Source: a virus
DNA: 64,000 nucleotides
Reading direction: 5' to 3' (one strand)
Virus record (IMG/VR): IMGVR_UViG_3300040771_000271
Location: 21,236-85,235 of that record
Shown here: piece by piece, positions 28,097 to 59,316 of the stretch
How the letters are laid out: each line of letters begins with the position of its first letter
How positions within the stretch are numbered: the first letter of the stretch is position 1
Made by a program: the position numbers and the translations under genes
The notes under the pieces: model-generated
What the model was told of the DNA's origin: nothing
Databases searched by the model: none
The model's input: only the letters and a program-made list of their open reading frames with translations

Positions 28097-28927
28097 ATGG
28101 TAGTAGTTTATAGACATATTAGATTAGATACTAATGAAGTTTTTTACATTGGTATAGGAGCAAAGGAAATAAGAGCTTATGCAACAAAAGATAGGAGTAA
28201 TTGGTGGAATAATATAATATCAAAAACTCTTTATGAAGTTGAAATAATTTTTGAACATGAAGACTATGAATTTATCAAAGAAAAGGAGAAAGAGTTTATA
28301 AAATTATATGGTAGAAGAGATTTAGGATTAGGCACTTTAGTAAATATGACAAATGGTGGAGAAGGAACAATAGGTGTAGAGATAACTGAAGATCAAAGAG
28401 CAGTTAGGAGAGATCAAATGATGGGTTGTAAAAATCCTTTTTATGGTAAAAAACATACTGAAGAGACCAAAAAGAAAATAAGTGATGTAAATTCTAATGT
28501 AATAGTTTCACAAGAAACAAGAAGTAAATTGAGTAAAGCTTTAAAAGGACGAGAAGTTACATTAGAAGAGATGGAAAAGCGATACTCTAAAAATAATCAT
28601 ATTACTAGAGGTTGTTATCATATTATTACAGGGCAGTATTTTAAAAGTTTAGCGGAAGGATGTAGATATTTTAAAATAGGATACAGAGTTGAAAAAAATA
28701 GAGTATTGCAAAAAGGTAGATATAGGTCTTTTGATTACGCTGAAAAAGATATTCGTAGTTCAGAGTTTACTTGCTTTGATGAAATTACCAATAGGAAGTT
28801 TAAGTCTTTAGCCGAAGCATGTAGAGAGTTAGGCTTAAACTATAATCAAACCCGAAAAAAATATAAAAGTGGTTTAATAAGAATTAAAAGTATATCTGAA
28901 ATAAAACAAAATAAAAATGAGGTTTAA
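28097..28927 (+). mobile_element. Free-standing GIY-YIG homing endonuclease with NUMOD3 motif
   Basis: VYRH..FYIG, LVNMTNGGEG, NPFYGKKHTEETKKKIS, C-terminal FKSLAEA repeats. Confidence 0.85.
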
Positions 28928-34820: not shown

Positions 34821-34840
34821 CATTTAAATAACTCAAAGAA

Positions 34841-37723: not shown

Positions 37724-40700
37724 ATGCTAGATAATACAAACCCCCTTTCAGGACTCTCAAATCCAAGACAAACTAACTTTTTAACTAGCGATACTAATGC
37801 TCAACCCATACCTACTCAGCAAATTGCGGAGGATATAAGATTAAAAAGTAGCCCTAGGTATTCAGACTTTTTAACTTCCTTTCAACAAGAAAATCAACCT
37901 AACAGTTTAGATGCATTTAAAGATAATAGGTTAAAATTAAAAGAGTTCTCTGTAAATATAGAAGACACATATATTAGATTAAATGATAATACTTATCAAT
38001 CTAAATTTGAAAATTATATAGAAGGAACTAATAATGAAGAGCGTCTAGCACAAGGGCAATCCACTTCTGATAAATGGATAAATGGACTTGAAAAATTAGT
38101 TTTAAAAACAGGTAATGTTGTATTAGGAAATACAGTGGGCTTTGTTAATGGTTTTATAGAAGCAGCTAAACAAGGAAGTATTTCAGCAGTTTATGATAAT
38201 GATTTTACTAAAACTCTTGATGATTGGAACACTAAATTAGACTATAAACTACCAAATTACTATACTCAACAAGAAAAAGATGCAGGGTTTGTAAATAGTT
38301 TAGGTAGTGCTAACTTCTGGGCTAATGATGTATTAGCAGGAACAGCATTTACTTTAGGTACGGTAGCTTCTGAAGCAATATGGGCTTATGCTACAGGTGG
38401 AGCAAGTTTGGCTCTAAAAGGAGCTAGAATAGGATCTAAGTTAGGTACAGCTGCTAGAGTAGGAGAAGAGGCTATAGTTGCAGAAAGGACTCTTTCGGGA
38501 ATAGAAAAAATGAAGCAGTTTATAAAACAACCTTTAAAATCAACAGCTAGTAAGGGAGTAATAAACAGAGAAGGAGCTATATTAGGAAGCAAGGCAGGAG
38601 AAATATTAAACACTGTAAGATTTGGATTAACATCTGCTTCTGGAGAAGCCTCTATAGAAGCTTGGCACTATAAAAAAGAAGCAAAAGAAAATTTCTACAA
38701 TAACTTTGAAACATTAAATGGTAGAAAGCCTACAGATGATGAAATTAGTAAGTTTGAAGAGGATTTAGCTAATTCTGCTAATGCAGTTTTTGCTACAAAC
38801 TATTTGTTGGTAGGTGGAGCTAACTTAGCATTTTTTGGAGGACAATTTGGAATAAAAAATCCTTTAAAATCACTATCTAAAGATGTAAATAAAGGGTTGT
38901 TTGGAATAGGTACACAAACAGTTGAAATAGGTGGTAAGAAAGTTGTACAAGCCTTAAAAGCTACCAAATTTCAAAATTTTGCGGGGAAAGCTTATGGAGT
39001 AAGTAGCAATTTATTTAATGAAGTTATACTTGAAGAAGGACTACAAGGAGTAACTACAAAAACAGCTAACAAATGGTTAGATAGTACTTACGATCCAAAA
39101 AAGACAGCAGAAAATCTAGACATGATGGGTATGGTGTATGAGTCTATGGGAGAAACTTATGGCACTAAAGAAGGGTGGAAAGAGTTAGGAACTGCAGCTT
39201 TAACAACACTTATAGGTGGAGCAGCAACAGGAAACTTATTCGGGGGAGCTAAAGATATTGACAACAAAAGAAAAGATATGGAATACAATGCAAGTGGATT
39301 AAACACATTTGCAGGAGATATATTTGTTAAGAGATTAGCTATGACTAATCAAATACAGGGAGCTAATGAACGTAAAGCAGAGGCAGACGCTAAAGGAGAT
39401 ATAGTAGGCGGAGAAATAGCTAGAAATGATAGTATGTTTTCCCGACTCAACTTCAACTATAACATTAAGAGAGACTCTAAAGATGATATTTCAGACTTGC
39501 AAGACTCTATCAATTTAATGTCTGTAGAGCAGTTTAAAGAGGCAGGAATAGAAGAGGAAAACATAGAACAGTTCAAAACAAATACTGTTGAAGAATATAA
39601 AACACTATCTGAATCCTTTGAAAAAAACAGGCAGTTTGCCGAAGCTATTATAGGTAAAGGAACTTTTGTAGGAGCTAACGAAGCAGGGTTAACAAATAAA
39701 TCAGTACTTATTGAAGCTTTAACTTATAACCTCACAATGGGAGAAGTTACAGGCGGATTACAAACTGATTTATTGACAAGTATTAAAAAAGAAATACTTG
39801 GAAACTTTACTCAAAGTAATGAACTGGTAGATGCTTTAGATATAGATAGAGTGCTCTTAAATTCAAGTGAGAAAACAAAGAAAACTTATCAAAATGTAAG
39901 TAGAAGAATAAAAACTTCAAATACTAAAAGGGAAGCTTTAAATAAAGAACTTTTAAGCTTAGAAAGAAATAAAAATAGTAAAGAGGATAATACAACATAT
40001 AATCAAAGATATACTAAAGTATCAAGTAGATTATTAGAATTAGAAGAAGAGTATGCTCAGCTTAAGCAAGAAAGAGATGTTTTATTCAAAGCAGCTAAAG
40101 TAGAAAATCCTTTTATAAAAGATGATACATCTGTATCTTCTATAGATTTAGATAGTACAGAGAAAAGATTATCTGATTTAAATGATTTAGTAGAAAACTT
40201 AAAAGAAACTAATTTACCAGCACACTTAAAAATTAGCAAGTTAATCTCGGAGTACAACCGTTCAGTAGAGCAGTTTAAAGAGTTTGACAATACAGCTAAA
40301 AAACTTTCTGACCCTAAGTACAAACCTAAAGATCAAAGTAGTTTTCTTTCAAAAATTATTAATGGTAAAAAGTCTATGGACGAATTTACTAAAGAGTTTT
40401 TTATAGACACTATTAAAAATTATAATGACGTAAAAAATGCATACTTAAAAGAGCAAGCAGACGAAATAAATGCTGACATTTCTAATGAAGAATATCAGAG
40501 TTTTAAAGATAATAAAGAAGTATCAGAGGAACTTTTAACTAAAATTTCGCAAAAAGTTAAAAGTAATGAAACTTTATTACCTAGAGAAAAAGAAGTCTAT
40601 GACAGTAATAAAGAGGAGATTGACGCAATAAAGGATACTATAGAAGTTACACCTCCAAAATCTGAAGAACCTATATTATCTTCTACAGAACAGCTTGTAA

Positions 40701-42868: not shown

Positions 42869-42904
42869 TTAATTTGCAACAGTTAAAAATTAATTATATA
42901 TTTG
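42866..42904 (+). promoter_or_regulatory. Promoter TAATTAATTTG-N20-TATATTTG
   Basis: Canonical Bacteroidota TTTG-N20-TAnnTTTG; upstream part resembles the extended motif. Confidence 0.7.
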
Positions 42905-42920
42905 TAAAAAATAGCAGTAG

Positions 42921-44354
42921 ATGAGTTGTATAGTAATATATGGAGATAATGGAAGTATAGTTGGGACGCAAACTCCGAAAGAAGAAACGTCTAAATTATT
43001 TCCAGAAGTTCTAAATAAAGTAAGAAATGAGAAAAGAGCTGCTGATTTAGTAGCTCTTACTTATACAGAAAAATTTGTAGAACAAGTTATATCACCTCTA
43101 AAAAGTAAATACAAAACAGCTATAAAAAGAAATTTAGATACTTTACAACCAAGTAACAGTATTATAAACCTTTTACATAAGGGTAAAGAGTATTCTGCAG
43201 ACATTAAAAACCTACTTTACAAAACAGTAGAAGTCAATGGATTTACTACTATACAAGCTTTTGTTAAAGCAGGAGAAGAAAATGTAATGTTAGGTAAAGT
43301 AAGAATGAAACCTTACAAAAATGGTTTAGCTATAGAGAGCACTAATTTAAGTACAGCTCAAGTTTATAATCAGGGAAATATAGAAGGTTTACAAGGTAAA
43401 GGTATTGGTACAGAAATGTATAAATACGCAATATTAAAAGTTATTAGTCAAAACAAACCTTTCTATTCAGATGCAAACCAAACACCTGCCGCAAACGGAG
43501 TGTGGGATAAGTTAAAGTCTACTAAAATTGTAAAAAGAGAAGATGGTAGGAATAAAATAGAAAGTACTCCAAGCAGTCACTTCGATAGCAATGGGGAAGT
43601 TTTACCTCAAGTATTATTTAATTATTTAAGAGGGGAGCAAGCTAAAGGTAAAAAACTAAGTTTTGAGCAAAAACAAGATATAAAAAACTCACTATTATCT
43701 TTACCTTTTGAAGACTCTCAAGAAATGGCAGACGCTTTGGAAAAATCTTTCTATGATGAAAATGGAGAGTTTAAAGTCGAAGAAAAAAAGTTAAAAGATT
43801 TTTACACAAGTTATGAAATCTTAAACATAAAAACAGATAGAGAATTACAAAAAAGCATAAAAAATATAATTGAATCTCTAAGAAACATAGATGAAGTATT
43901 TACAAAAGAAACTTATTTTTCAAATGACTTTCTAGTAAAACGATCAACAATTAATAGTTTAGGAAAGCTTGTAAATAATAATCCTTTAGCAACAGAAAAA
44001 AACGTAATACAAGAATTAGGAGGGGTTAAAGATAGAGAAGAGTTCATAAGTAAAGCAGAATCTTTAGAATTACCACAAGTTTTAAAACAAGCTACAGTTG
44101 AATCTAAAGAAGTAGAAGCTCCAAAAAAAGAATTACCTAAAAAAATTGTAAAAGAAATTAGGATAATTGAAGAAGAAGTATTACCTTTGCCAGAAGTAAG
44201 TAAATTAGAACTTATTAAGTTACCTTTAATATCTGTATCTGAAATAACAAACGCAAAAACTTCTAAAGATATGACAAGAATAAAATTAGCTCAAGAAAAG
44301 TTAAAAAAAGAGTGGCAAGATTTAGAAGAATTAAATAATTGCGCATGGAGTTAG
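42921..44354 (+). CDS. Ejection-protein-like ORF with embedded GNAT-like domain
   Basis: N-terminus similar to that of the 53770 ORF; QGKGIG..MY...YSD..QT..A.GVW.KL GNAT signature. Confidence 0.6.
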   Translation: MSCIVIYGDNGSIVGTQTPKEETSKLFPEVLNKVRNEKRAADLVALTYTEKFVEQVISPLKSKYKTAIKRNLDTLQPSNSIINLLHKGKEYSADIKNLLYKTVEVNGFTTIQAFVKAGEENVMLGKVRMKPYKNGLAIESTNLSTAQVYNQGNIEGLQGKGIGTEMYKYAILKVISQNKPFYSDANQTPAANGVWDKLKSTKIVKREDGRNKIESTPSSHFDSNGEVLPQVLFNYLRGEQAKGKKLSFEQKQDIKNSLLSLPFEDSQEMADALEKSFYDENGEFKVEEKKLKDFYTSYEILNIKTDRELQKSIKNIIESLRNIDEVFTKETYFSNDFLVKRSTINSLGKLVNNNPLATEKNVIQELGGVKDREEFISKAESLELPQVLKQATVESKEVEAPKKELPKKIVKEIRIIEEEVLPLPEVSKLELIKLPLISVSEITNAKTSKDMTRIKLAQEKLKKEWQDLEELNNCAWS

Positions 44355-44749
44355 ATGATTTTAAACAAGCACTTGACGATAAAAGACATCAAGAGATACT
44401 GACATTACTTTCAAATACAAATACAGTAAATAAAGGTATAGTTGAAATAGTTGATGCTAACACAAAAACACTTGAAAAGTTTATAGAAAAACTTCAAGAG
44501 ATAAATAAAGAAGTTCCTGCAGATATAATAGTAGAAGTCAATCAAGATTTAGTTATTAGAGAACTAGCAAAATTAACTCAAGAGTTTAAAACAAACCTTA
44601 CAGAATTAAAAAATAATTTAAATAGTCCTGTAACTTTAGACGTAGAAGAATTAAAACCTCTCTTAAAAAAAGAAGAGCAAAAAAAGAATTGGGTTTTTGA
44701 CATAAAAAGAGACACTCAAGGATTTATAGAAACAGTCACAGCAAGATAA
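44345..44749 (+). CDS. Hypothetical coiled-coil protein, first gene of the inserted cassette
   Basis: ATG at 44345 preferred over TTG at 44339; C-terminal WVFDIKRDTQGFIETVTA. Confidence 0.6.
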   Translation: MELDDFKQALDDKRHQEILTLLSNTNTVNKGIVEIVDANTKTLEKFIEKLQEINKEVPADIIVEVNQDLVIRELAKLTQEFKTNLTELKNNLNSPVTLDVEELKPLLKKEEQKKNWVFDIKRDTQGFIETVTAR

Positions 44750-44772
44750 AATAATCTAAAACCAATAACCTT

Positions 44773-47325
44773 ATCGCAGCATTTACAGTAACTACGGCAC
44801 AAAACATAGATCAAATTACAGGAAAAACTGGTGGTGATACCTATGCAATAAATGGAGGTACATTAACTATAGATAATGACAGTAGAACAGGTTTAAACCA
44901 AACGACTTCTACAAGTTTAGGGAGTATAACTCTATCTGCTTCTTTGGGTGGAGTGGTAAATATTGACGGTACTGCTATATGGATGATTCCGTTTACAGCA
45001 GGAACAGGAAACGTACCCGCATTTAATACAGTTATTAGTAATGGTTCTGGAAGTGGTAAATTAATTGGAGTTCATGCTACACTTGCTTCGGCTTCTACGG
45101 CTTCGGGTGCTGTAATGCCCGCAACAGGCTTTTTAAGAGTTAAGCAAAAAACAGGAACGTACATAGCAGGAGCTTTAACAGGTATAGGAGCTACTGCAGG
45201 TGATGCAGGGCGTATTGGATGGATAGAAATCGTTGGTGACGAAGCAAGTACTATAAACGCTAACCGTTTAGGAGTTTATAATTCTAATGGTGCTTGGTAT
45301 GAAGTAGGTACGACTTCGGGAGTTTCTAACCAAACTATGCAAATTCCTAACAACGGTTTGCAAAGATATTGTGGTGGAGTTTACATAGAAAAAACTGTAG
45401 GTAGTAATGATTTTGAATTCTATCCGAATAACGGGACAAACACAACAACAGGTACAGAAGCTACTAGAGGAAAGCTAGTTTGGATTGACGCCACGGGACT
45501 TGTGAGAATAGGAAACTCTGGTGCTGCTACAAACGGCTTTACTCCAATAGCAGGGTTAAAAGTAGTTGTTGGGAATATATTTTTTGAGAATTGCACCGTT
45601 GCCGCAAGAACAGCGAACGTAATACCTAGTGCTACATTAGCTACAAGATATGATTTTACTACTACAGGTGGAGGAGTTGTGAATATTACAAAATCAACCT
45701 ACGCTTGGTATTTATCATGCGCTCAAGCTTATGCCGTAAATATTTCAGACTCTTCATTTATAGACTCAATATTTCTATCAGAAATAGCAACCGCTATGAC
45801 TTTTAGCAAAGTTGGAGTTGGGAACAAACCAACGACTCCATTACTTACATCACCACTAACAATGACTTTTTGCTTTGCAGGAGGAACATTTACAGACTGT
45901 GTTTGGCAAAGAGTTTCTATGGCTGCTTCAGGTGCGCACACAAACACTTTATCAGATTGCTCAGGATTTGATTTTGTAAGAGATAAAATAGTTGCGGGAG
46001 TTATTAGAGCAAATGCAACAACGTTTTCTGTAAATGCCACACGTATTAAAAATTGTACTTGGACGACTCCTACGATTATACAAGGAGCTATGACATTTAC
46101 TACTTGTGACAATATACAAATAACAAACACAATATACTGTGAAGCGATTTCGGGAACCACATTGGCAACTCAAGCAGGTTACGTATGGAGTTTAAGTACG
46201 AATACAATAAACTGTAAAATATCTGGATTAACAATGCCTGTTTTGAACACGCAACCTTTTACGGGACTTTTGCAATTGACAACAGGTTGTTCAAATAACA
46301 AGCTTAGAAGTATCGGTACAAGAGCTGTGCCAATAAGTATGGGAACAGTAAATAACTGTGGTTTAATTTACACAATAGTTTCAGCTTGTTTTGACACTAA
46401 AATTCAACGAGTTTACGTAAGTAACACAAGAACAGGTATTATGACAGGGGATAACTCTTCAAAAGGTCTTGTAGAAGAAAATGTATTTGGAGATTACGCA
46501 GATGCCGTCGACGTTATGGCGGTTCTGAACATGGAGCGTAAAGGAATGGGAGGTACGGGTGCATTAAGTGGACAAGTATCTGTTTATGGAACACATTGGT
46601 TAAATTGTTTTACTTCAGCAACAGCAGGTAGAATAGCGGTTCTTATGAACGAACCTACGGCAGAAACAGCTACACAAGTTACACTAACAAATGGAGCAGC
46701 GTTCACTTCTGGGGGAAGTTTGTACATGCCTATTATTGGACATAAAGTGTTATTTGAAACTCCTAGTTACATAATTGGTCACAACTCCTTTACGAATACT
46801 GCTTTAATAATGGCAGGAGGAACAGCAACAAACTATACATATAGGTATCAAATAGATAAAGGAGCAGGTTTTGGAGCGTTCAGTGCAGTTTTAACAGCGA
46901 CAACGTTAGCTACGGCGTTAAGCGGAGAAACAGCAATAAACCCTAGTGTAGGAATTAAATTAAGGTTAGAAATTACCACTTCTGTTACCAATGCAACCGC
47001 AATAACAAGTGTGTTTTTAACAACAGTAAGTTCAACAACTTCTCAAGATTTTCAATACCCTTTAGATACATTTAAGCTAACGTTTAGTGGAATAGTTAAC
47101 GGTTCAGACGTGGTTATACTGCAAGCAGGTACGGATACGGTTTTAGGACAAGTCGACCAAAATAGCGTAAGTACTTGGGATTACATTTATGAAACGCCAA
47201 CCAACGTAGATATTTTTGTATCAAAAGCAGGATTTGTTCCATTTTACATTAGAAATTTTACACTACAATCTTCAAACGCAACTTTACCAATAGCACAAAT
47301 AATAGATAGAAATTATATAACTTAA
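44773..47325 (+). CDS. Beta-helix-rich structural / spike-like protein with probable ATC start (850 aa)
   Basis: Frame is open from 44755; ATC GCA GCA TTT ACA follows an A-rich leader; 57 extra coding-like codons precede the track's TTG start; T/G/S-rich repeats. Confidence 0.6.
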   Translation: MAAFTVTTAQNIDQITGKTGGDTYAINGGTLTIDNDSRTGLNQTTSTSLGSITLSASLGGVVNIDGTAIWMIPFTAGTGNVPAFNTVISNGSGSGKLIGVHATLASASTASGAVMPATGFLRVKQKTGTYIAGALTGIGATAGDAGRIGWIEIVGDEASTINANRLGVYNSNGAWYEVGTTSGVSNQTMQIPNNGLQRYCGGVYIEKTVGSNDFEFYPNNGTNTTTGTEATRGKLVWIDATGLVRIGNSGAATNGFTPIAGLKVVVGNIFFENCTVAARTANVIPSATLATRYDFTTTGGGVVNITKSTYAWYLSCAQAYAVNISDSSFIDSIFLSEIATAMTFSKVGVGNKPTTPLLTSPLTMTFCFAGGTFTDCVWQRVSMAASGAHTNTLSDCSGFDFVRDKIVAGVIRANATTFSVNATRIKNCTWTTPTIIQGAMTFTTCDNIQITNTIYCEAISGTTLATQAGYVWSLSTNTINCKISGLTMPVLNTQPFTGLLQLTTGCSNNKLRSIGTRAVPISMGTVNNCGLIYTIVSACFDTKIQRVYVSNTRTGIMTGDNSSKGLVEENVFGDYADAVDVMAVLNMERKGMGGTGALSGQVSVYGTHWLNCFTSATAGRIAVLMNEPTAETATQVTLTNGAAFTSGGSLYMPIIGHKVLFETPSYIIGHNSFTNTALIMAGGTATNYTYRYQIDKGAGFGAFSAVLTATTLATALSGETAINPSVGIKLRLEITTSVTNATAITSVFLTTVSSTTSQDFQYPLDTFKLTFSGIVNGSDVVILQAGTDTVLGQVDQNSVSTWDYIYETPTNVDIFVSKAGFVPFYIRNFTLQSSNATLPIAQIIDRNYIT

Positions 47326-47327
47326 TA

Positions 47328-47981
47328 ATGGTAATATATAAAATTACAAATAAAACAAACAATAAATCTTATATTGGGCAAACCATACAAAAAGTCGAGC
47401 AAAGATGGAGAGAGCATTGTAAGAAATCAAAGAAAAACGTATCAGCAATATCTTTTGCAATTCAAAAATATAAAAAAGAAAACTTTACTTTTGAGATAAT
47501 TGATGAAAATATTATAGATATTGAAGATTTAAACAGGCTTGAAAAATATTACATAGAGTTATTAAACACGATGAGCCCTAATGGTTATAATTTAACATGT
47601 GGAGGTTTAAACTATATTGTATCTGATACTACAAAACAAAAAATGCGTCTTGCTAATTTAGTTCAAAAACGTTCTGTGGAGACTATTAATGCAATAATAG
47701 CATCCAAAAAAAATTTAAAACTCTCTCAAAGTTCGATTTATAAGCAAAAATTAGGAAAATTGTTACATAACTTATATGTAAACACTAAAAAAGGCGTTCG
47801 TTTTAATAAAAAAGACAATGCTTTTCAAGCTTTTATATATGTTGATGGTAAGATAAAAACTAAAACCTTTACAATAAGTATTTTAGGAGGTATGGCTGAA
47901 AAATTAGCAGGAGAATGCAGAGTAGAATTTGAAAAAGAGACAATTGAATATTATAAAACAAAAATAAATAAAAATGCCTAA
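47328..47981 (+). mobile_element. Free-standing GIY-YIG homing endonuclease with C-terminal AP2-like domain
   Basis: VIYKITNKTNNKSYIGQT, RWREH, NGYNLTCGG; KGVRFNKKDNAFQAFIYVDGK is AP2-like. Confidence 0.85.
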
Positions 47982-49326: not shown

Positions 49327-49334
49327 AATAAATC

Positions 49335-49357
49335 AAGGGGTGTTAGCCCACCCCTTT
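49335..49357 (+). terminator. Hairpin / putative terminator
   Basis: AAGGGGTG/CACCCCTT stem, short U tail. Confidence 0.55.
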
Positions 49358-49372
49358 AATAAAACCAAATAA

Positions 49373-50677
49373 ATGGCGTATATCTTTAATGGAATAACTA
49401 AAATAATAACTTTTGATGTAAGCACAATAACTGTTGATGTTAGAGATTTGTGGAGCAGATATATTGAATGGTTATTAACTTCAGATAATTCTAAATACTT
49501 ATTAGCTATGAGGAACGTTGGAGGAGACCCACTGCCAGGAGCTAAAGAATTAGGAATTAGTTATTTTATGATTAATGGTTGGAAAATAAAACCTTTTGAA
49601 GAAAGTCAAGTTTTAACAGTTAATGGTAATCTATATTCGGAAGATGGGTCAAGCCCTTACGCACCTGTTTTAGGAGCTTTTAATGTAACTATTTTAAGTT
49701 CAGTTTCAAATTTAGTAGATAGTACTGTACAACAATTACCTGAAATAGAGTACGCTTCTTACAATGGAGGAGTTACTATAGATGCAGTAAATGGTACAAA
49801 TAGTTCGACATATCCATTTGGAACACCTTTATACCCTTGTAAAACAACTTCAAATTCTTATGCTATAAGACTTGCTAGGGGATTTAAGAAGATATATTTA
49901 CGTAGTGATCTAAATTTAGTTGGAATTCCAGATGGGATACTTAATGGATTAGATATTATAGGAGAAACGGGAAATAGAAAATACACACTTACATTTAATA
50001 ATGTACTAGTAACAGATTGTAAAGCTACTAACTTAGCAGTAACTGGTGTTTTTAAACAAGGGTCTACAGCACAAGCTGTGGATTGTGAGATATACGATTC
50101 TGTGGACGTGGATTTAAGAGCAACTAACAGTAGTTTAAAATCAGGAGTTTATGCAAATACTAATCTCACAAATTGTATATTAGAGGGAGATATTAGTATA
50201 AAACCTGGAGGAAATATGAGTGGTACAGGCATTGTTTTTGAAGGAGATTTAACAACTATAAATATGTTAAGTCAACCATCAACTGTTTCATTAGATGTAG
50301 ATTCAGGATATTTTAAATTAAAAAATGCTATTGTAGGATCTCTAGCTGAATTTAATCTAAGAGGTGGGGAAGTAGAAATTGATACTACTTGTACAGGAGG
50401 AGAGTATTATTTAGAAGGATATGGAACTTTATATAATAATGGAACAATGACTGAAAAAGGTAATCATTTACTAGCTTTAGAAACTATACCAATTAATGTT
50501 TGGAGTAATCAAAACGCCATAGATCAAACAACTAAAATAGATGAACTTCATAAAGTAGGAGGACTTGATTCAGAAAATCCAGCCACAACTACAGCTAATG
50601 AAATTTCAGTAGGAAGTATCACTATAGACATTACAGGAGACGGAGAAACTTCAACAACATTTACAAGAAATGATTAG
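49373..50677 (+). CDS. Structural-type hypothetical protein with beta-helix-like centre
   Basis: 434 aa; VRDLWSRYIEW...MRNVGGDPL...YFMINGWKIKP N-terminal domain. Confidence 0.55.
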   Translation: MAYIFNGITKIITFDVSTITVDVRDLWSRYIEWLLTSDNSKYLLAMRNVGGDPLPGAKELGISYFMINGWKIKPFEESQVLTVNGNLYSEDGSSPYAPVLGAFNVTILSSVSNLVDSTVQQLPEIEYASYNGGVTIDAVNGTNSSTYPFGTPLYPCKTTSNSYAIRLARGFKKIYLRSDLNLVGIPDGILNGLDIIGETGNRKYTLTFNNVLVTDCKATNLAVTGVFKQGSTAQAVDCEIYDSVDVDLRATNSSLKSGVYANTNLTNCILEGDISIKPGGNMSGTGIVFEGDLTTINMLSQPSTVSLDVDSGYFKLKNAIVGSLAEFNLRGGEVEIDTTCTGGEYYLEGYGTLYNNGTMTEKGNHLLALETIPINVWSNQNAIDQTTKIDELHKVGGLDSENPATTTANEISVGSITIDITGDGETSTTFTRND

Positions 50678-50927
50678 TCCCATATCCATAGCCACAAGAG
50701 GTAGAATAAGTAAGAGTGTTAAAAAGGCTTTAACTTATTCTACTTTAGGTTTAATGGTTATTATGGCTCAGGGAATTCCTGTAAAACCAACTGTAATAAA
50801 AGGTTCTACCACTCACAGTAAAAAGTTTGTACAGAACATAGAAAAAAACATCTTATATGAAAAAATAATTCGAGAAGATGATGAAATGTTAACAATGATA
50901 AAAATATTTTTACAATGTCAAAAATAA
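50670..50927 (+). CDS. Small hypothetical protein ending the cassette
   Basis: 85 aa, overlaps both neighbours; C-terminal FLQCQK. Confidence 0.55.
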   Translation: MISPISIATRGRISKSVKKALTYSTLGLMVIMAQGIPVKPTVIKGSTTHSKKFVQNIEKNILYEKIIREDDEMLTMIKIFLQCQK

Positions 50928-53293
50928 AATGTTTTCAAGGAACATCTTTACAGGATGAATTTGAATTAAAGGTATCTCAAGGTATAGAGGAGGCACAATC
51001 TGTAAAAGAAGTTATAACAGAACAAGCAAATAAAATAATTGATAAAGTTAATAGGTTAAGAGCAGAATTAGAACTACCTTTACTAGAAAAAATAATCTTA
51101 GAAATTCCAGAAATACTACAAAAAGAAACTGTTGTAGAGGAAGTTTTTGATAACGATTTAGATTCAGTCTATGAAAAAGCAAAACAAAATTCTGATTTTG
51201 AAAATTTTGTAGAAGTTATGTCTGATTTCAGAGATGGACATTCAGCACCAAGTAAAGATGAGGGGTTAACAAAAGAAAAGCTAGAAACAGGAGGTGACTT
51301 CTCATTAATGGAAGTAGCTAATGGATTCCATAACCAACCTTCTGATTATTTTGAGCCTAAAGTAGGGGCGAGATACTATGGTTATGACAACAACGAGGGT
51401 ATGCAGTCTTTTACAGCTATAAGCAATGTAATAAGAGCTTTAAAAGCAGGTAAAGATAATGTAACTATTACATCATATAGAGCTATCCCTTTAGACATTG
51501 ATTTAGATAGTCTTAAAGATTATGATTGGGTGACTTTTTCAAAAGGGTACGCTGAAAATCATGGAGAAGCAAGATTTGGAGAGAAAACTTACAAAATAAT
51601 TGAGCAAGAGGTAAAATTAAATGACTTATGGTGGGATGGTAATGACATAAACGAATGGGGATATGATACAGGAAACACTAAAAAATATAGCAGAAGAGAG
51701 TTAAAAGATATACATGATAAAGTAAATGCATTACCTCAAGAAAATTTAAATAGTTCTTCAGAAAGTAAAACACTATTTGAAAAAATGCAAGAGTTTAAAC
51801 GAATGTCCCAAATGAAAATAGAAGGTGATACTTTAACTGCTGTTAATCAAAATGACATAAGAGTACAACTAGAACAGACTTTAAATTTAAGTGATAACCT
51901 TTCTATATCTTCTGACATAATTTACCTTAATGAATTAGGTCAAGATTTATACTATGAAAATATTGAAGATGTAAAAGAATTAATTAAAGAAATAGAGGTT
52001 AAATCTGCTAAACAAGGAGTTGATATAGTAGGGCTTTCAAGTAAAGTGTTTTCAAAAAGTAGGGATGAAATATATGACCTTTTAGAAAGTCTAAACACAT
52101 TGCTTTTAGAGCCTTCAGAGCAGTCTTTCAACGACTTCATAGGGCAACATCAAATAGTATTTGAAACAGAAGTAATTCCTATAACAAAGGTTGAAGTAGT
52201 TTCTGAAAATAATTTAAATAAAAGCTTAATATCTCTAAAAACTAAACTTTCAGAGTACACTCTTTTTAATGATTTTGGATTATTAAAGGTATCAGAAAAT
52301 ATATATCAACAAATTGAAAAAGAAGATTTAGACACATTATATAATAAACTTTATGCTATTTCTCAATACAATGAAAATATATTACCTAAAGAGGCATTTC
52401 CTTTAGCAAATCAAGCAGGAGAGCTAAATCTTGAAACTTTAAGAAATATTGAAAATAGAGAATTAATAGTTGCCGACATAAAAAGATTTATAGAGAATGA
52501 AGTGTCAAAATTAGACGTACCCTCAGTATCTTTAGATAATACTGTTTTACAACAAATGGTTATTAATAAATATGCTTTTGGACATCCTATGACTTTTAAA
52601 AAGAACGTAGATTTTCAAGAAGAGTTTAACAGTTTTGAAGCTTTTGATGGGAACGAAGAGTATTTAAAAACAGATTTTATAGCTGACTTCTATTCAGAAT
52701 TTTTGCAAGAAAAAATAAAAGACAGTGAAAAATATAAAGAGTTCTATAGTAACTTTTCAATAAATGAGAGAGGAATAGTACTTGTAAATGATGACGCAAT
52801 AACAGTTCAGAAAATTAAGGACTATTTAGCCGAAAAAAACATTAAGCAAGCTAAAGATTTAGAGAACTATTCATTATTAACAGACCAAATACCAAACTTA
52901 AAAACTTTAGAAAAACCTAGTTCCGATTACACTAGAGATTTCTATAGAACAAATTATATTAACAACCCAATGAGTTTGGACAAAGTAAAGGGAGAATATA
53001 AGTTTATAACAGACACTACAATAGTAAAAAACAACAGTATAGATAATTTTATAAGAGTTAAAGACAGAGTGTTTGAACTTGTAGATACAAAGGGGGGTAA
53101 TAGTTTTTATGAAGAAGTTCCTGTAAACACATCTGAGTATAAAACTTTTAATGTATCTCAACCTGTTTTAAGTGTAAACTTAGACAACTATGGAGCAGAA
53201 AGATTAGATGAAGTTCCACCAGTAAAAATTGAAAAATACTACTCCAAAGCGGAGGAACAAAAAATAAATGAAGAAAGTTTTGAATGTTTGTAA
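50915..53293 (+). CDS. Ejection-protein-like ORF with embedded ADP-ribosyltransferase-like domain
   Basis: YRAIP...DWVTFSKGYA..HG...EWGYD gives an R-S-E-type spacing. Confidence 0.55.
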   Translation: MSKIKCFQGTSLQDEFELKVSQGIEEAQSVKEVITEQANKIIDKVNRLRAELELPLLEKIILEIPEILQKETVVEEVFDNDLDSVYEKAKQNSDFENFVEVMSDFRDGHSAPSKDEGLTKEKLETGGDFSLMEVANGFHNQPSDYFEPKVGARYYGYDNNEGMQSFTAISNVIRALKAGKDNVTITSYRAIPLDIDLDSLKDYDWVTFSKGYAENHGEARFGEKTYKIIEQEVKLNDLWWDGNDINEWGYDTGNTKKYSRRELKDIHDKVNALPQENLNSSSESKTLFEKMQEFKRMSQMKIEGDTLTAVNQNDIRVQLEQTLNLSDNLSISSDIIYLNELGQDLYYENIEDVKELIKEIEVKSAKQGVDIVGLSSKVFSKSRDEIYDLLESLNTLLLEPSEQSFNDFIGQHQIVFETEVIPITKVEVVSENNLNKSLISLKTKLSEYTLFNDFGLLKVSENIYQQIEKEDLDTLYNKLYAISQYNENILPKEAFPLANQAGELNLETLRNIENRELIVADIKRFIENEVSKLDVPSVSLDNTVLQQMVINKYAFGHPMTFKKNVDFQEEFNSFEAFDGNEEYLKTDFIADFYSEFLQEKIKDSEKYKEFYSNFSINERGIVLVNDDAITVQKIKDYLAEKNIKQAKDLENYSLLTDQIPNLKTLEKPSSDYTRDFYRTNYINNPMSLDKVKGEYKFITDTTIVKNNSIDNFIRVKDRVFELVDTKGGNSFYEEVPVNTSEYKTFNVSQPVLSVNLDNYGAERLDEVPPVKIEKYYSKAEEQKINEESFECL

Positions 53294-53310
53294 TTTTCTT
53301 TCTATATTTG
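53279..53310 (+). promoter_or_regulatory. Host-type promoter TTTG-N20-TATATTTG
   Basis: Exact Bacteroidota primary sigma consensus upstream of the ORF at 53328. Confidence 0.7.
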
Positions 53311-53327
53311 TAAAAAAATAAATATAT

Positions 53328-53762
53328 ATGGAAGAGCAATTAATAAGTTTCGAGACAGCTAAGGTAGCTAAAGAAAAAGGATTTAATATTGAATGTAAAA
53401 ATAAATATGTAGAGACTTTAGAGCATACTCTTGAAATGGGCAGAGGCGGAGATTGTACTTTTGCCTATCAATCCCCAAGGGTACTTTCTAGTCGCAGTTA
53501 TGATAAATGGGATATAATCCATTGTAATGCACCAACACAGTCTTTACTTCAAAAATGGTTGAGAGAGGTTCAGAATATTCATGTAAAATTACATTCTTCT
53601 AATACAGATATTTTTTCTTTTGAAATATACTTTATGATTTACAAAAATGTAGATTTAAATAAAAAAAACTTACAAAATCATAAGTATAGTAAAATAAATT
53701 ATAGCACTTACGAAGAAGCTTTAGAAGCAGGATTACAAGTAGCATTAAAATTAATAAAATAA
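53328..53762 (+). CDS. Moron-like hypothetical protein common in Bacteroidota phages
   Basis: MEEQLISFETAK.AKEKGF...APTQSLLQKWLRE...TYEEALEAGL; has its own promoter. Confidence 0.65.
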   Translation: MEEQLISFETAKVAKEKGFNIECKNKYVETLEHTLEMGRGGDCTFAYQSPRVLSSRSYDKWDIIHCNAPTQSLLQKWLREVQNIHVKLHSSNTDIFSFEIYFMIYKNVDLNKKNLQNHKYSKINYSTYEEALEAGLQVALKLIK

Positions 53763-53769
53763 AAGATAA

Positions 53770-56700
53770 ATGAGCTGTATACTAGAATATAATGCACAAA
53801 ATAAAATAACAGGGGTAAAAGATGCAGAGGGTAAAACTTCTGCATTATTTAATTCTATAGTTTCCAACCCTCACTTGTCCGTTGAACAAGCAGTAGATAT
53901 CTATAAAAACAGCTTCTCTAAAAAATTTAAAGGTGAGCAACTTCCAATAGAATATAGAAACGTTAATGGAGAAGTATTTCAAAATTTTAAAGACGCTTTA
54001 GATAGCACCTCGTCAGGAGATATTCAAGGTTATAGTGGAGATAATTTAATGTTTTCTATAGACAGTGGTTCTAATCCTGAATCACTTTCTGGTTTTTTAA
54101 ACTCTATGATTAAGGAAGATGTAATTTTAGGAGAGACTTTATTTGACAACGGACAAAAAGTAATTCAAGTTTCTGGAGCTTCGGAAGTTATGAGAGCTAT
54201 AAAATCTCAACTTTTTCAAGATAGTTCTTATGGTTATATTGGAATTAATAAAATTAAGAGGTTGAGTAATGGTAATTTTATAATTCTTGAAGAGGGACAA
54301 AAAGAATTGCCAAAAGATTACAAAACTTTTGAAGAAGAGTTGAGTGCAGATCCTATGTATAGACCTTATGGAGATTCTAAAGTTATTCAAGACGAAGTAG
54401 AACTTCCCAATGAAGACAATCTAAAGGTTCAATTATTATCCTTACTTAATAAATTAGGGGTTAAAACTATGGGTATTTCTGAATATATTTCAAAATATAA
54501 TATTAAAAACGGAGTAGAGCCTACAGCACAAGCTTTAGTTGATATAGCTAATAGAGTAGTAGCTTTTCAAGGAGGTCAAATAGAGGTTGAAGATTTAACA
54601 GAAGAAACAGCTCACTTAATAGTTGAAGGTTGGAATTCAGAAGAAATAGAAAACTTACTTAGGAATATACATAGAACAGAAGAGTGGGCGGAGTTAAGTG
54701 AAAATTATAGAGATATATATTCTAAAACTTATAGTGGAGAAGAGTTAGATAAAGTTTTAAGAAAAGAAATTTTAGGTAAAGTATTAAAAAACGCAATACA
54801 AAGTAATTTCCAAACAGAAAATAAAACAGAAACTCAACAAAACTTTATTGAGAGAGTTAGAAAACTTTTTCAAAACTTTTTTACTAAAGTACAAGCTTTA
54901 TTTAAACCTCAATATATTTCAGATCTACAAAGTTTTAATAACCAAGTAGTTCAATTATTACAGCAGGATGAGCTACAAAACTATTTATCAAACGAACAGT
55001 TATCAACTAGTAAGTTAACTTTATACAGTGTACCAAACAGCTCAAAAGACCCTATGGCACTACAAGTGGCTGTAGCTAAGAAAGCTATAGAGATATTAGA
55101 AATAACTCAAAACCAACTTTCAAAGGTTAGTGGAATTACTTCAAGTAAAGAGGCTGTTTTAAGATTAAAACGAAATTTAGATGATATTGACGAACAAAAT
55201 AAAATAGCATCCTTTGCAGGGATCACAGCTTCTGTAAAAACCCAAATTAAATATTTAAATAAAGCTTTAAAAAATAATGATAAAAGTAAACACCCTTTCT
55301 CAACAGAAGAGAATGTAGTTTACATGACATTATTAAACCAAATGAGACCTATACTAAGTGAAGTAGGAGGTTTACTAGAACTTTCAAAATACAATGATAG
55401 ACTTATTAAGGCAGAAATAGATCAAGCTATAGTAGGTATTCAAGATTTATATGGAGAAGTTAGTAAAATTGACAATTATCAAGTACTTGAAAATCTAGTT
55501 GACGATTTAGCCATAAAACACAACTGGTCAGAAGATTCAAAAATTAATTATCTTAAAGTAGCTAAAGCAGCAAAGAAAGACACTAATTGGGCACATGCTT
55601 ATTTTGGAAGTTTAAATCATGCTGAAAACCCTCTCTTAAATCTTTTTGGCGAAAACATTAAAAAAGTAACTTTACAGACTTACAGATACCATGCTAATCC
55701 AACAACAGATTTGTTATTAACCTTAGAATCTTTAGGTGTTAGTCAAAAAGAAGTAAACTCTTTAAGGAGAGGTAGTTTTTTAATAGATGAAGTAGACCAC
55801 CAAAAAGTAGAAGATAAGGTAAATGAAATAGAACTTAAAGCTTACAATCAATTCTCTGGACAAGCTACTTTAGATATTAAAGAATATTTAATTAAAAAAA
55901 GAGAGGGAGTTTTACCAGATGTTCCAAACGATAAATTTCAAGAATATAGAGAAGAAGTTAAAGACGAACTTAATCAGTATTTAGAGAGACCTTTTAAAGA
56001 TGAATACTATACTAAAAAAGAAGCTCTTTACGAACAAGAAAATATTTCTTTAGAGACTAGAAAGTGGTTAAGTACTATATCTAGTGATGTAGCTTCAATA
56101 TATCAAAGAGCTAAAGATGAAAGTGGAACTATAGTTTTAACAGAAGATTTAAAATTTAATTTAGAGCAAATAGCTAAAGAAAGAGCCTTTGCAAAAAGTC
56201 CTTACACAACAGATGGTAGTTATAAAAGAGGTCTTAGTGGAGTTATAGATTCTGAGGGTAATTTAGAAATAGTTATAGTTGGAGACACTTCAGAAGAAGC
56301 TTCAAGAGCTTATGAACTTGCAAAACTTGATAAAATTTTCTTGAAAGATCTGCAAGACAATAAAAAAGATAAACAAGGTATTCCAACTAAGTTTATAGAA
56401 GAAATAGAAAAATTAGAAGCCCAAGGAGATTTTAAAGGAGCTTTTGACTACTTGAAACTAAACTCTTATTTAGGGTTTAATAGAGAATTTTGGGATAGTT
56501 TGGGGGGTAAAGAAAGCTTAATGGACAGACTGTCAAATGTTGAAGGAGATAATCAGCAAAGAGCAGAAGAATTAATTTTTTCTATTAAAGAGTTACAAAG
56601 TAAGAGAAATAATATAATTAAAGGTAATAGAGTTTTAAACCAACCTTCAGAGACAGACGTAGAGAGAATGTCAACATCTGAAAAAGAATACATAAAAGAG

Positions 56701-59316
56701 TATACAGAGAAGTTACAACTGCTATATCAAGAAGCCTCAACATTTTTTAAGAAAGAAAAAAACGAGGAAGAAGTTGAAGAAACAACAGAGAATACAGTTA
56801 ATCAAGCTTATAGAGATTCTTTAAAAGATTTAGGAATAAGAGGTATACAGGAACTTGATTTTATTAGAGAACATACAACTTCAAATGGCAAAGCAGACAT
56901 AGATTCAGCTAAAACATTTGTAAATATGTTACTTAAAGGTCAATTGGTGAATATACCTAAAAAATTTGAAAAACATTTTAGTTCTAACTACCCTAAAGAT
57001 TTAGAGGAAAGACAAATAGCTGTTTATAAAGATTTAGTAAAATATTCTCAAACAAAATTATTACCCTACTACACTAAATTTTCACCTGTAGGTTATGACA
57101 GTTTAATTCAAGAACTAGGAGAAGGGACTAAAAAAGTTTCTCAACTATTACAGGAAGTTTCAAATGGAGAATCTCCTTTAACTGTAACTCCAAATTATAG
57201 TTTCTTTGAAGCAGAGGAAAGAACAGATTTAAATGAGAAATACATTAAAAATTATGAAGGAGGAAGGTATCAATTTAAGGGAAATGATTTTAAAAGTTCA
57301 GAGTATGTAAATCTTTTTGCGCCAGATAAAAATAGAAACGCAACAAAAAATGAAAAACTATTTAAAGCTAGACAAGCCTTATTAGATTATCATAAAGAGT
57401 CCTTACAAGCAACAGACACTTTAAATCAACACAACTTATTTAAGCTACCTCAACAGAGTAAGTCAAGCCTTAGAAAAGTGGAAGCCTTTGCAAAACAACC
57501 TTCTTTTGGTAAAATTAGAGAGGGAATAAAAGATTCAGTAGGTTATAGAGAGGAAGACATAGCAACAGGTGAAGTTATAGAGGGAAGCGAAAAGTTTAAG
57601 GTCCAAGATATGAAAATTATACCTAAATACGGCTTTAGAGATTTAGCCAATCAGGATGACTTATCAGATGAACTTCTAACAAGCTACAGTTGGATGCATG
57701 AGCAAGGTATGTTATATAGAGCAAGGAAAGAGCATATAGGACAAGCTTTAATGTTGCAAAGTTCTGTTTTGAATGATACTTATTCAAATAAAGAAGCTGC
57801 AGCTACAGCAACTTTAAAGATGTTTAATTCTCACATGGATGAAGCCTATTTTGGAGTTAAGGAAGATATTGATTACAATATAAACTTTTTTAAGAATTAC
57901 AATATAAATGTTTCAAAACTTTTAAGAATATTTTCAACATTTGTAAGATTTAGAAACTTAGGTTTTGCAGTTATTTCTCCAGCAACATCCTGGATAACAG
58001 CTCAAAGTCAGTTTTATTTGGAGAATAAAGTAGGAGAGCATGTAGATATGACCTCCACTAAGATGGCTAATAAAGAGTTTAGAAAGTTAGCAGGAAAAGC
58101 TATAGCAGAAACGGGCGAAATAAATTCAAAAGCAAGGTTAAATATACTATTGGAAAATTTCTTAGTTTATAATAAAGCAGAGAGATTGAAAAACTCATCC
58201 TTTGGAAAGGTTATGAGAAATATGGTAAAACTACCTTATGCTACACACTCTATGGGTAACTTTCCAGTTATTCCTAGAATAGCTTTAAGCGTAATGTATG
58301 ATTACAGAATTGTAAATGGGAGTATTCAAAACTTTAACGAGTTTAAAAAAGCTAACCCAACATTATCAAGTCTAGAGCTTAAAAACACTTGGAATGCAAA
58401 TGAGCAAAATACCATGTATAATTTTATGCTTACAGATGATGGAAAGTTTAATTATGACAAAGCTAAAATGGAGGGCTTATTAAACAGATCTGGAGAAGAC
58501 TTAGAAAAGTATTTAAAGCTTAAAAACGAAGCAATCTATCAAAGAATTAGTTATGCAGTTCAGAATATAGATGGTCAAATGCCTGAAGAAGAGAAGAGCA
58601 TTTCGGCTCGTAACCTATTTTTACAGTTACTTACCGTTCACAGATCCTTCATTCCGATAGCCACAGCAAGGAGATTTAAAAATAAACATACTTCTTTAAT
58701 GTCAGGACAAGTTGAAGAAGGCTCTTACAGAACTTTAGGGAGATTTGTTAAAGGTTATTTTGAACAGTTTACTAAGGACGACGTAAAGAATTTAGGTAAG
58801 GATATAAAAACCTATTGGGCAGAATTTACTCAAGATGATGTTAATGCTAAAATGAACATGCAACGTAATGGTAAAGATTTTATAATGTTAAACCTTATAG
58901 CAGGGTTAAGTATTTTACTAGCTAAATTAGCTGATGACGAAGAAAATAAAGACGTTTTTTTAATACAGGCTGCAAATTATCTAATGCTCAGATTAACAAA
59001 TGAAACGGCATCTGTAGGTGTAGCTTTACCAGCAACATATTACGAAGTTGTGGAATCAAGTTTTGTTGGCTTAAATGTTATCCCTGATGTATTAGCTGTA
59101 ACAGATATCGGAAGCGATGAAATAGTTTCAAGTGGTAAATGGACTGGAGCTACAAAAAATCTTAGGTATTGGGGACGCAATACGGGATTGGTCAAGGAAT
59201 ATTTTAACCTCAAAAACGTGCAACGAGTAAAAGATCAATACATTTTAAATTCAGGTACATTTATGTATTTCACTCCAGCTTACCTATTATCAGAAGACAA
59301 GGAAGATAAGAAATAG
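53770..59316 (+). CDS. Giant ejection / cargo protein
   Basis: 1848 aa, helical, hydrophobic C-terminal segment; last gene of the virion block; single Cys at residue 3. Confidence 0.65.
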   Translation: MSCILEYNAQNKITGVKDAEGKTSALFNSIVSNPHLSVEQAVDIYKNSFSKKFKGEQLPIEYRNVNGEVFQNFKDALDSTSSGDIQGYSGDNLMFSIDSGSNPESLSGFLNSMIKEDVILGETLFDNGQKVIQVSGASEVMRAIKSQLFQDSSYGYIGINKIKRLSNGNFIILEEGQKELPKDYKTFEEELSADPMYRPYGDSKVIQDEVELPNEDNLKVQLLSLLNKLGVKTMGISEYISKYNIKNGVEPTAQALVDIANRVVAFQGGQIEVEDLTEETAHLIVEGWNSEEIENLLRNIHRTEEWAELSENYRDIYSKTYSGEELDKVLRKEILGKVLKNAIQSNFQTENKTETQQNFIERVRKLFQNFFTKVQALFKPQYISDLQSFNNQVVQLLQQDELQNYLSNEQLSTSKLTLYSVPNSSKDPMALQVAVAKKAIEILEITQNQLSKVSGITSSKEAVLRLKRNLDDIDEQNKIASFAGITASVKTQIKYLNKALKNNDKSKHPFSTEENVVYMTLLNQMRPILSEVGGLLELSKYNDRLIKAEIDQAIVGIQDLYGEVSKIDNYQVLENLVDDLAIKHNWSEDSKINYLKVAKAAKKDTNWAHAYFGSLNHAENPLLNLFGENIKKVTLQTYRYHANPTTDLLLTLESLGVSQKEVNSLRRGSFLIDEVDHQKVEDKVNEIELKAYNQFSGQATLDIKEYLIKKREGVLPDVPNDKFQEYREEVKDELNQYLERPFKDEYYTKKEALYEQENISLETRKWLSTISSDVASIYQRAKDESGTIVLTEDLKFNLEQIAKERAFAKSPYTTDGSYKRGLSGVIDSEGNLEIVIVGDTSEEASRAYELAKLDKIFLKDLQDNKKDKQGIPTKFIEEIEKLEAQGDFKGAFDYLKLNSYLGFNREFWDSLGGKESLMDRLSNVEGDNQQRAEELIFSIKELQSKRNNIIKGNRVLNQPSETDVERMSTSEKEYIKEYTEKLQLLYQEASTFFKKEKNEEEVEETTENTVNQAYRDSLKDLGIRGIQELDFIREHTTSNGKADIDSAKTFVNMLLKGQLVNIPKKFEKHFSSNYPKDLEERQIAVYKDLVKYSQTKLLPYYTKFSPVGYDSLIQELGEGTKKVSQLLQEVSNGESPLTVTPNYSFFEAEERTDLNEKYIKNYEGGRYQFKGNDFKSSEYVNLFAPDKNRNATKNEKLFKARQALLDYHKESLQATDTLNQHNLFKLPQQSKSSLRKVEAFAKQPSFGKIREGIKDSVGYREEDIATGEVIEGSEKFKVQDMKIIPKYGFRDLANQDDLSDELLTSYSWMHEQGMLYRARKEHIGQALMLQSSVLNDTYSNKEAAATATLKMFNSHMDEAYFGVKEDIDYNINFFKNYNINVSKLLRIFSTFVRFRNLGFAVISPATSWITAQSQFYLENKVGEHVDMTSTKMANKEFRKLAGKAIAETGEINSKARLNILLENFLVYNKAERLKNSSFGKVMRNMVKLPYATHSMGNFPVIPRIALSVMYDYRIVNGSIQNFNEFKKANPTLSSLELKNTWNANEQNTMYNFMLTDDGKFNYDKAKMEGLLNRSGEDLEKYLKLKNEAIYQRISYAVQNIDGQMPEEEKSISARNLFLQLLTVHRSFIPIATARRFKNKHTSLMSGQVEEGSYRTLGRFVKGYFEQFTKDDVKNLGKDIKTYWAEFTQDDVNAKMNMQRNGKDFIMLNLIAGLSILLAKLADDEENKDVFLIQAANYLMLRLTNETASVGVALPATYYEVVESSFVGLNVIPDVLAVTDIGSDEIVSSGKWTGATKNLRYWGRNTGLVKEYFNLKNVQRVKDQYILNSGTFMYFTPAYLLSEDKEDKK

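Follow-up and report, generated by a model that had tools for sequence, protein, structure and literature searches.

Introduction

N4-like phages package giant proteins in the virion and eject them (gp50 of N4; gp71, gp72 and gp73 of DEV). These proteins are nearly free of cysteine, which has been explained as the avoidance of disulfides during passage of the periplasm; in the Schitoviridae, the purge is reported to be complete, with stray cysteines attributed to annotation errors, and the polymerase is one polypeptide (PMC11445570). Crassviruses, too, encode giant virion proteins, in a triad whose genes follow those for the muzzle and cargo (gp67, gp66 and gp65 of phi14:2; gp47, gp50 and gp49 of crAss001), and gp66 of phi14:2 is the crystallized virion RNA polymerase (PDB 6VR4). 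Here, we analyzed a 64,000-nucleotide stretch of viral DNA (the window), which comprises positions 21,236 to 85,235 of the IMG/VR record IMGVR_UViG_3300040771_000271 and encodes, between positions 37,724 and 59,316, four large proteins of 1714, 477, 792 and 1848 aa. They are assigned to three families: A (the 1714-aa protein), B (the 477- and 792-aa proteins) and C (the 1848-aa protein).

The A/B/C set resembles the crassvirus triad in the size of its proteins, in gene order and in an identical rule for the placing of terminal cysteines; the N-terminal motif M-[SA]-C-[KR]-[IV] is shared as well, and gp66 starts with MACKIE. The difference lies in the middle protein, since B belongs to a family of 500 to 900 aa that is not an RNA polymerase and is found in the window in two pieces. 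With the ejected proteins of N4-like phages, the set has the near absence of cysteine in common. However, unlike the Schitoviridae proteins, A, B and C strictly keep a single cysteine wherever the termini of separately encoded pieces face each other, and these cysteines are their most conserved positions. Suppression of cysteine is already known from N4-like phages, but the retained terminal cysteines are apparently undescribed. We found no published description of the rule in a search that reached few subscription journals, so that its absence is not proof, and terminal cysteines are not mentioned in two reports on related phages (PMC10172136; bioRxiv 10.1101/2020.03.07.982082). We argue that A, B and C, which are giant, cysteine-purged, predicted virion proteins, are rather likely to be joined head to tail in the particle through their only cysteines.

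Results

Cysteines of the four large proteins

The positions of cysteines were counted by script in the translations of the open reading frames (ORFs). Protein A (1714 aa; 37724..42868, + strand), a member of the crAss001 gp47 family, has a single cysteine, the penultimate residue 1713 (codon 42860-42862). The 477-aa protein, B-N (42921..44354, + strand), has Cys3, in the canonical motif of the N-terminal module (MSCIV...), and Cys474, on a new tail. Its 792-aa counterpart, B-C (50915..53293, + strand), has Cys6 and Cys791, and protein C (1848 aa; 53770..59316, + strand; crAss001 gp49 family) has only Cys3 (codon 53776-53778). Thus, the six cysteines that a sequence-only reading of the window had counted by eye, all near the termini of these four ORFs, were recovered, and internal cysteines, named beforehand as a possible refutation, were not found in any of the four proteins. 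In their 4,831 residues, ~53 cysteines would be expected (Poisson P, ~4e-16), and the probability that six cysteines would all be placed no more than 6 residues from a terminus is ~1e-12. The three large ORFs upstream of A (966, 983 and 960 aa; 28917-37723) contain no cysteine at all, as had been supposed. The frequency of cysteine is 0.078% in the seven cargo ORFs versus 1.09% in the other + strand ORFs of the window.

The four genes are not successive, as the earlier reading had it: the 792-aa gene is separated from the 477-aa gene by six ORFs and from the 1848-aa gene by another, of 144 aa, and several of these intervening ORFs carry internal cysteines. The 144-aa ORF (53328..53762, + strand; phrog_12005, E value of 2e-29) has three internal cysteines and is not part of the chain. 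Small ORFs, matched by position, are found at the same place in phi17:2 (gp037) and in contigs L041 and L042. An 85-aa ORF (50670-50927) does end in LQCQK, as had been read, but its role as an alternative partner did not hold up. Its only cysteine codon, TGT, shares nucleotides with the ATG at which the 792-aa gene starts, and the cysteine is therefore probably a by-product of the overlap.

Conservation in three protein families

The proposal depended on conservation of the terminal cysteines in homologues, and this was borne out. Among 360 homologues with 549,355 residues, 498 of the 533 cysteines are terminal, in a pattern that is specific for each family. The 120 A proteins (207,825 residues) have no N-terminal cysteine, 119 C-terminal ones and 2 internal ones; the 159 B proteins (169,681 residues) have 145 N-terminal, 158 C-terminal and 14 internal ones; and the 81 C proteins (171,849 residues) have 76 N-terminal, no C-terminal and 19 internal ones. 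The frequency of internal cysteines in the three families is only 0.001 to 0.011%. In 119 of the 120 A proteins, a cysteine is found in the last 8 residues; it is the sole cysteine in 117 proteins and the last or penultimate residue in 110 of the 119. In C, a cysteine at position 3 to 6 is present in 76 of 81 proteins and is usually the only one among 1,800 to 3,100 residues. C homologues retain it down to ~22% identity.

Since a word-based search for B homologues gave only 10, an exhaustive profile search was needed, which gave 578 representative clusters. The counts for B include the best 150 of these 578 representatives, 149 of which were newly found; 131 of the 149 have exactly one cysteine near each end and none inside. 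A scan of IMG/VR with the 477-aa protein gave one close relative only.

When 58 N-terminal modules of B and C were aligned, the cysteine was the sole invariant column apart from the initiator methionine, and only G21, S24, L26 and F27 were near-invariant. The motif common to B and C is [SA]-C-[KR]-[IV]-x-[YR]-N-x-x-G-x-I. Likewise, the C-terminal cysteine was the sole invariant column in an alignment of 59 C-terminal domains of B. Acidic residues are frequent beside the C-terminal cysteine.

The apparent exceptions that were followed up are artefacts of contig edges or a stop codon. The C proteins P0050 and P0058 are truncated by contig ends. The only A protein without cysteine, P0139, is interrupted by one in-frame TAA (L044:12254-12256), behind which the canonical cysteine tail continues in the same frame; the TAA could stem from a sequencing error or a nonsense mutation, or it could be read through. 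In the phage csAssE-Sib, the N-terminal module of C with Cys5 is found on a separate 281-aa ORF (L002:33086-33931) that overlaps the annotated 1885-aa gene (33831-39488), a layout that suggests a frameshift or a misannotated start.

Fission of the B gene

From their alignments, the 477- and 792-aa genes are the halves of one split B gene. The 477-aa protein matches positions 2 to 300 of the B profile (E value of 4e-76), and the 792-aa protein matches positions 296 to 826. P0207, an unsplit B protein of 897 aa, has cysteines only at positions 3 and 896; its residues 1 to 395 are 62% identical to residues 1 to 395 of the 477-aa protein, and its residues 377 to 897 are 61% identical to residues 268 to 792 of the 792-aa protein. 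Unsplit B is the widespread state, and because the more distant B proteins are unsplit too, the split is derived. The same split is found in the close relative L018. At the break, the new C-terminal end has a tail of ~80 residues with Cys474 and the new N-terminal end has a leader with Cys6. Growth of the chain by gene fission or insertion, as had been proposed, is therefore matched by a case in the window itself, a split B gene with a new pair of cysteines.

B is split by a cassette of ~6.5 kb (44339..50927, + strand) with ORFs of 136, 793, 217, 450, 434 and 85 aa; the 793-aa ORF has 14 cysteines and the 450-aa ORF has none. The 217-aa ORF (47328-47981, + strand) encodes a GIY-YIG homing endonuclease (PF01541, E value of 2.6e-11; phrog_314, E value of 2e-28). 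Most of the cassette ORFs are conserved in L018, but the homing endonuclease is absent there. The 85-aa ORF is 96% identical in L018, compared with 87 to 91% for its neighbors. Behind the cassette, the 792-aa protein (phrog_29175, phrog_2579) is made up of the new leader, a ParB-C-like insert (approximately residues 85 to 280) and the C-terminal half of B, in this order. The ParB-C-like domain (51170-51750; phrog_2579) recurs at 35 to 56% identity in proteins of a dozen viral contigs that are not otherwise related (L004-L015) and therefore looks like a mobile cargo domain.

Two other readings of this region were rejected. The 477-aa protein was considered as a detached C-terminal part of A, but BLASTP against the longer A proteins of phi17:2 (1957 aa) and csAssE-Sib (2208 aa) yielded no match, and its identity as the N-terminal half of B rules this out. 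The 6.5-kb stretch is also not an intron: several of the ORFs within it are conserved, the 477-aa gene ends with a tail of ~80 residues and a stop codon of its own, and the 792-aa gene begins with its own start codon and leader.

Fusions and the number of cysteines

If facing cysteines connect separate proteins, they should be lost where adjacent genes are fused, and in fact, this is what was found. P0327 on contig L042 (2,173 aa) is an A-B fusion whose sole cysteine is penultimate; at the joint, the last ~70 positions of the A profile and the first ~240 positions of the B profile are absent. It is followed by a C protein with residue 3 as the only cysteine. Further A-B fusions are found in L026 and L027, again with a single cysteine at the C-terminal end and followed by C with Cys3, and the L026 fusion is only ~25% identical to P0327. 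On contig L041, P0326 (2,380 aa) is a B-C fusion with residue 3 as its sole cysteine; here, the joint lacks ~30 positions from the end of B and ~120 from the start of C, and the A protein encoded before the fusion has its only cysteine as the last residue. Thus, the junction cysteines are lost in each of these fusions, whereas the distal partner keeps its own. A complete A-B-C fusion in a single gene was sought but not found among the records listed.

In all 12 loci that show both partners, there are twice as many terminal cysteines as junctions, and the order of the chain is the order of the genes. Four pieces go with six cysteines in the window and L018; three pieces go with four cysteines in L019 to L024, L028, L035 and L036; and two pieces go with two cysteines in L026, L027, L041 and L042.

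Named phages

The named relatives nearest to the window are the Cellulophaga phages phi17:2 and phi4:1 (Lightbulbvirus) and the phage csAssE-Sib, at ~25 to 30% protein identity; weaker matches of the window proteins are to Crassvirales genes annotated as "RNA-polymerase subunit." Indeed, tblastn with the 1714-aa protein found such genes in several crassviruses, the A profile matched crAss001 gp47 (E value of 1.8e-29), and the C profile matched crAss001 gp49 in three stretches (E value of 1.3e-73). By profile comparison, the B family is unrelated to crAss001 gp50. The motif of virion RNA polymerases, [AGSN]D[FY]DxD, occurs in no frame of the window, and a homologue of phi14:2 gp66 was not detected in the 129,922-bp genome (92% complete) of which the window is a part. 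Since this genome keeps the rule without a detectable gp66-type RNA polymerase, the proposed terminal-cysteine linkage belongs to the A/B/C cargo set and not to polymerase function.

The rule is also found in phi17:2, where the annotation of the homologues gp036, gp038 and gp039 as structural is based on their similarity to phi4:1 proteins. The annotation of genes g065 to g067 of phi14:2 comes from tandem mass spectrometry (MS/MS) proteomics. There, gp67 has a cysteine as the last residue only, gp66 has cysteines at 3 and 2179 only and gp65 has one at 3 only, which gives 4 cysteines in 5,398 residues. With C-terminal positions counted backwards from the end, crAss001 has cysteines at -3 only in gp47, at 5 and -9 plus one internal in gp50, and at 5 only in gp49; DAC15 has the same three-piece pattern with a few internal cysteines. 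A few internal cysteines are tolerated in the gut crassviruses.

Fused layouts are found here as well. In crAss002, LMMB (p-crAssphage-like) and cr8_1, the layout is (A)(BC): A ends in cysteine, and the fused protein has an N-terminal but no C-terminal cysteine. In cr50_1, cr6_1 and FpV4, it is (AB)(C), and FpV4 gp32, with 4,287 residues, has one cysteine at -2. In crAss002, an in-frame MSC that matches the N-terminal motif is found 32 codons downstream of the annotated start of gp33 (L038:13088-13190), and this MSC is probably the true start. In cr8_1, a thioredoxin gene (L047:28230-28499) lies near the cargo module; this gene may matter should the links be disulfides.

Structure models

For the first 150 residues of C, a compact alpha/beta module was predicted (mean predicted local distance difference test [pLDDT] score of 91), with Cys3 just before strand 1. 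In the predicted C-terminal domain of B (mean pLDDT score of 88), the cysteine comes after a short helix that ends a tail of ~40 residues with low confidence. In these models, a cysteine at the C-terminal end on a flexible tether would so face a cysteine at the edge of the N-terminal module. A known fold for the module was found neither by Foldseek against the PDB nor by a profile search of PDB sequences. With an exhaustive aligner, the best match was residues 2 to 95 of phi14:2 gp66 (6VR4), but since this match is weak (Z score of 3.9), homology to the N-terminal domain of gp66 is a lead only. A Pfam search of the 477-, 792-, 1714- and 1848-aa proteins gave no intein (Hint) domain or domain of that kind.

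Genome setting

With ~30% G+C and nearly all of its genes on the same strand, the window encodes a portal (125-2713), a major-capsid-type protein (3914-5602) and, at the position of the crassvirus muzzle, a giant protein family (21284-27913), downstream of which lies a block of very large virion-type proteins. The first of the cysteine-free proteins upstream of A, the 966-aa cargo protein (28917..31817, + strand; phrog_4067), has an N-terminal lytic transglycosylase (SLT) domain (PF01464, residues 3 to 89, E value of 5.6e-8). It is followed by the 983-aa virion protein (31820..34771, + strand; phrog_36695, virion structural protein, E value of 3e-67), whose phi17:2 counterpart, gp041, is likewise without cysteine. 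The 960-aa virion protein (34841..37723, + strand; phrog_32131) is encoded directly 5' of A, and the protein at this position has no cysteine in any related locus examined.

The giant gene at the muzzle position comprises ORFs of 1894 aa (21284-26968) and 311 aa (26978-27913). It seems to be split, with a gap of 9 nucleotides between the pieces, because both ORFs match one family, phrog_37948, at positions 7 to 1741 and 2047 to 2287, respectively. The last residue of the 1894-aa ORF is a cysteine, and the 311-aa ORF starts with MACNC and has 9 cysteines among its first 50 residues; since these proteins are rich in cysteine, the terminal cysteines at this break may be due to chance. A 276-aa homing-endonuclease ORF (28097-28927; phrog_314) adjoins the split gene in the structural module.

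Discussion

We propose that the C-terminal cysteine of A would be joined to the N-terminal cysteine of B and the C-terminal cysteine of B to the N-terminal cysteine of C; the phage of the window would have one additional joint between the two halves of B. Each link would most likely be a disulfide between the cysteine of a flexible C-terminal tail and the cysteine at the edge of the N-terminal module of ~100 to 150 residues, a disulfide being the simplest chemistry. Since the links would be at the ends only, the assembly would stay linear, a thread of ~4,800 residues that could pass, unfolded and in a fixed order, through the portal and the tail channel. Internal cysteines would give branches or loops and may have been purged for that reason. 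In the reducing cytoplasm of the host, reduction of the links would set the pieces free.

The sequences show the cysteine rule, its conservation and its course at gene fusions and fission; that the facing ends are physically paired, that disulfides hold them, that the chain is threaded and that reduction releases it is what we infer. Three features favor head-to-tail links. First, A never has an N-terminal cysteine (0/120) and C never has a C-terminal one (0/81). Second, fusion removes both facing cysteines together with the tail and the module, whereas the distal partners keep theirs. Third, fission creates a new pair of cysteines. The linear-chain pattern of the sequence-only reading is therefore supported by the sequence tests that were run, none of which gave a contrary result. 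Disulfides can form in crassvirus particles, since cryo-electron microscopy (cryo-EM) has shown them in the tail and in gp57 of the crAss001 virion (PMC10172136).

Several points weigh against such a chain. Mass spectrometry of reduced and nonreduced crAss001 virions did not lead to a report of linkage between gp47, gp49 and gp50 (PMC10172136). The positions of the cysteines in the partners (3 to 6 at the N-terminal end, -1 to -9 at the C-terminal end) show no obvious covariation. Virions are assembled in a reducing cytoplasm and many such phages live in the anaerobic gut; oxidation could therefore take place only after packaging or release. The balanced counts would also result if each cysteine were conserved separately, and the case for pairing therefore depends above all on the behavior at fusions and at the fission. 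Finally, LMMB, crAss002, FpV4 and cr8_1 encode an extra cargo protein with a single terminal cysteine and no obvious partner: in LMMB, a protein of 861 aa with a cysteine at -2 (L039:1576-4161); in crAss002, gp30 with a cysteine at -8 (L038:2393-4066); in FpV4, gp30 with Cys5 (L040:4054-5850); and in cr8_1, gp90 with Cys5 and 4 internal cysteines (L047:354-3902). A strictly linear chain does not explain these proteins.

If the facing termini dock but the pair of cysteines holds a metal (a Zn or Fe clamp) or stabilizes a noncovalent contact of the tail with the module, fusion, fission and balanced counts fit equally well. Such a clamp requires no oxidation, which suits assembly in the cytoplasm and anaerobic habitats, and the acidic residues beside the C-terminal cysteine are in line with it. 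However, two thiolates alone are a weak site, no conserved column of His, Cys or Asp ligands accompanies the cysteine in the alignment of N-terminal modules, and the variable positions are more in keeping with a flexible disulfide than with a defined site for a metal. We consider docking without a disulfide improbable.

We give a similarly small chance to each terminal cysteine acting independently, in homotypic dimers (C-terminal ends of A with each other, N-terminal ends of C with each other) or in attachment to the portal, the capsid interior or other cargo. The partnerless cargo proteins of LMMB, crAss002, FpV4 and cr8_1 fit this well, and homotypic intersubunit disulfides are present in crAss001 gp57. 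But independent cysteines give no reason why one terminus of A and one of C should always lack them, why a fusion should remove both facing cysteines while the distal partner keeps its own or why a fission should create two new ones at the break.

Less probable still is a role only after ejection, as a redox switch or in the control of assembly or activity of the injected complex in the host, with no link in the virion. The crassvirus trio is thought to work jointly as an injected RNA polymerase module (PMC10172136), and cysteines could guide its reassociation. The genome of the window, however, follows the rule without a detectable gp66-type polymerase, and the reducing cytoplasm of the host is a poor site for the formation of links.

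Another covalent chemistry, such as a peptide or thioester bond formed by a thioester or ligation-type reaction, or a lipid or other terminal modification, is very unlikely. A C-terminal X-Cys and a cysteine near the N terminus are what an acyl shift requires, and the N-terminal module is not explained by any known domain. Yet the N-terminal cysteine is at positions 3 to 6 and not at position 1, the positions are variable, no processing site is evident, a signal peptide or lipobox context is lacking, and A, B and C showed neither a Hint domain nor another Pfam domain. That the pattern is due to chance or arises from nucleotide signals at gene boundaries (overlapping start and stop codons), for which the 85-aa ORF is the one fitting case, is refuted by the conservation data. 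The probability calculated for the window alone also speaks against it, and the rule holds across hundreds of clusters with differing intergenic layouts. Among these layouts are a gap of 52 nucleotides in the window, a distance of 9 kb between the partner genes of csAssE-Sib and, in crAss001 and DAC15, partners encoded on opposite strands.

The head-to-tail chain that we favor can be compared with other systems. In AB-type toxins, two chains are held by one disulfide, and one of them is translocated unfolded across a membrane and released by reduction in the cytosol. The analogy is functional only, without homology: the toxin chains usually come from one cleaved precursor and have one link and no virion, whereas the proposed chain would be separately encoded and have multiple links. 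Split inteins rejoin the products of a gene that was split by mobile DNA, and the cassette that splits B does hold a homing endonuclease. In contrast to inteins, A, B and C have no Hint domain, their cysteines are 1 to 6 residues from the ends, and there is no intein sequence; the pieces of the chain would probably remain individual polypeptides, connected through their side chains. A precedent for covalent linkage of virion proteins that are translated separately is the HK97 capsid chainmail, and the disulfides of crAss001 are a second case. These links fix the lattice of shell and tail, whereas the links proposed here would join cargo that must leave the particle.

It is quite possible, though we would stop short of calling it probable, that the tail and the N-terminal module form a portable, redox-cleavable connector, used across the Crassvirales and related podophages of Bacteroidota, with or without RNA polymerase as cargo. 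Such a connector would make a "virtual polyprotein" of 5,000 to 6,000 residues, would determine in which order proteins are ejected through the tail and would let genomes fuse, split or insert cargo genes without losing delivery. For annotation, the cysteine rule is already of use, since it flags the probably misset start of crAss002 gp33 and joins the stop-broken gene in L044. A conserved end-to-end link, if true, would be a mechanism for ordered ejection of proteins and their release in the host, and it would bear on how several megadaltons of protein, RNA polymerase included, get through a narrow tail. It would also explain why cysteines are purged and yet always kept at defined ends, and why frequent fusions and splits of these genes are tolerated across the order.

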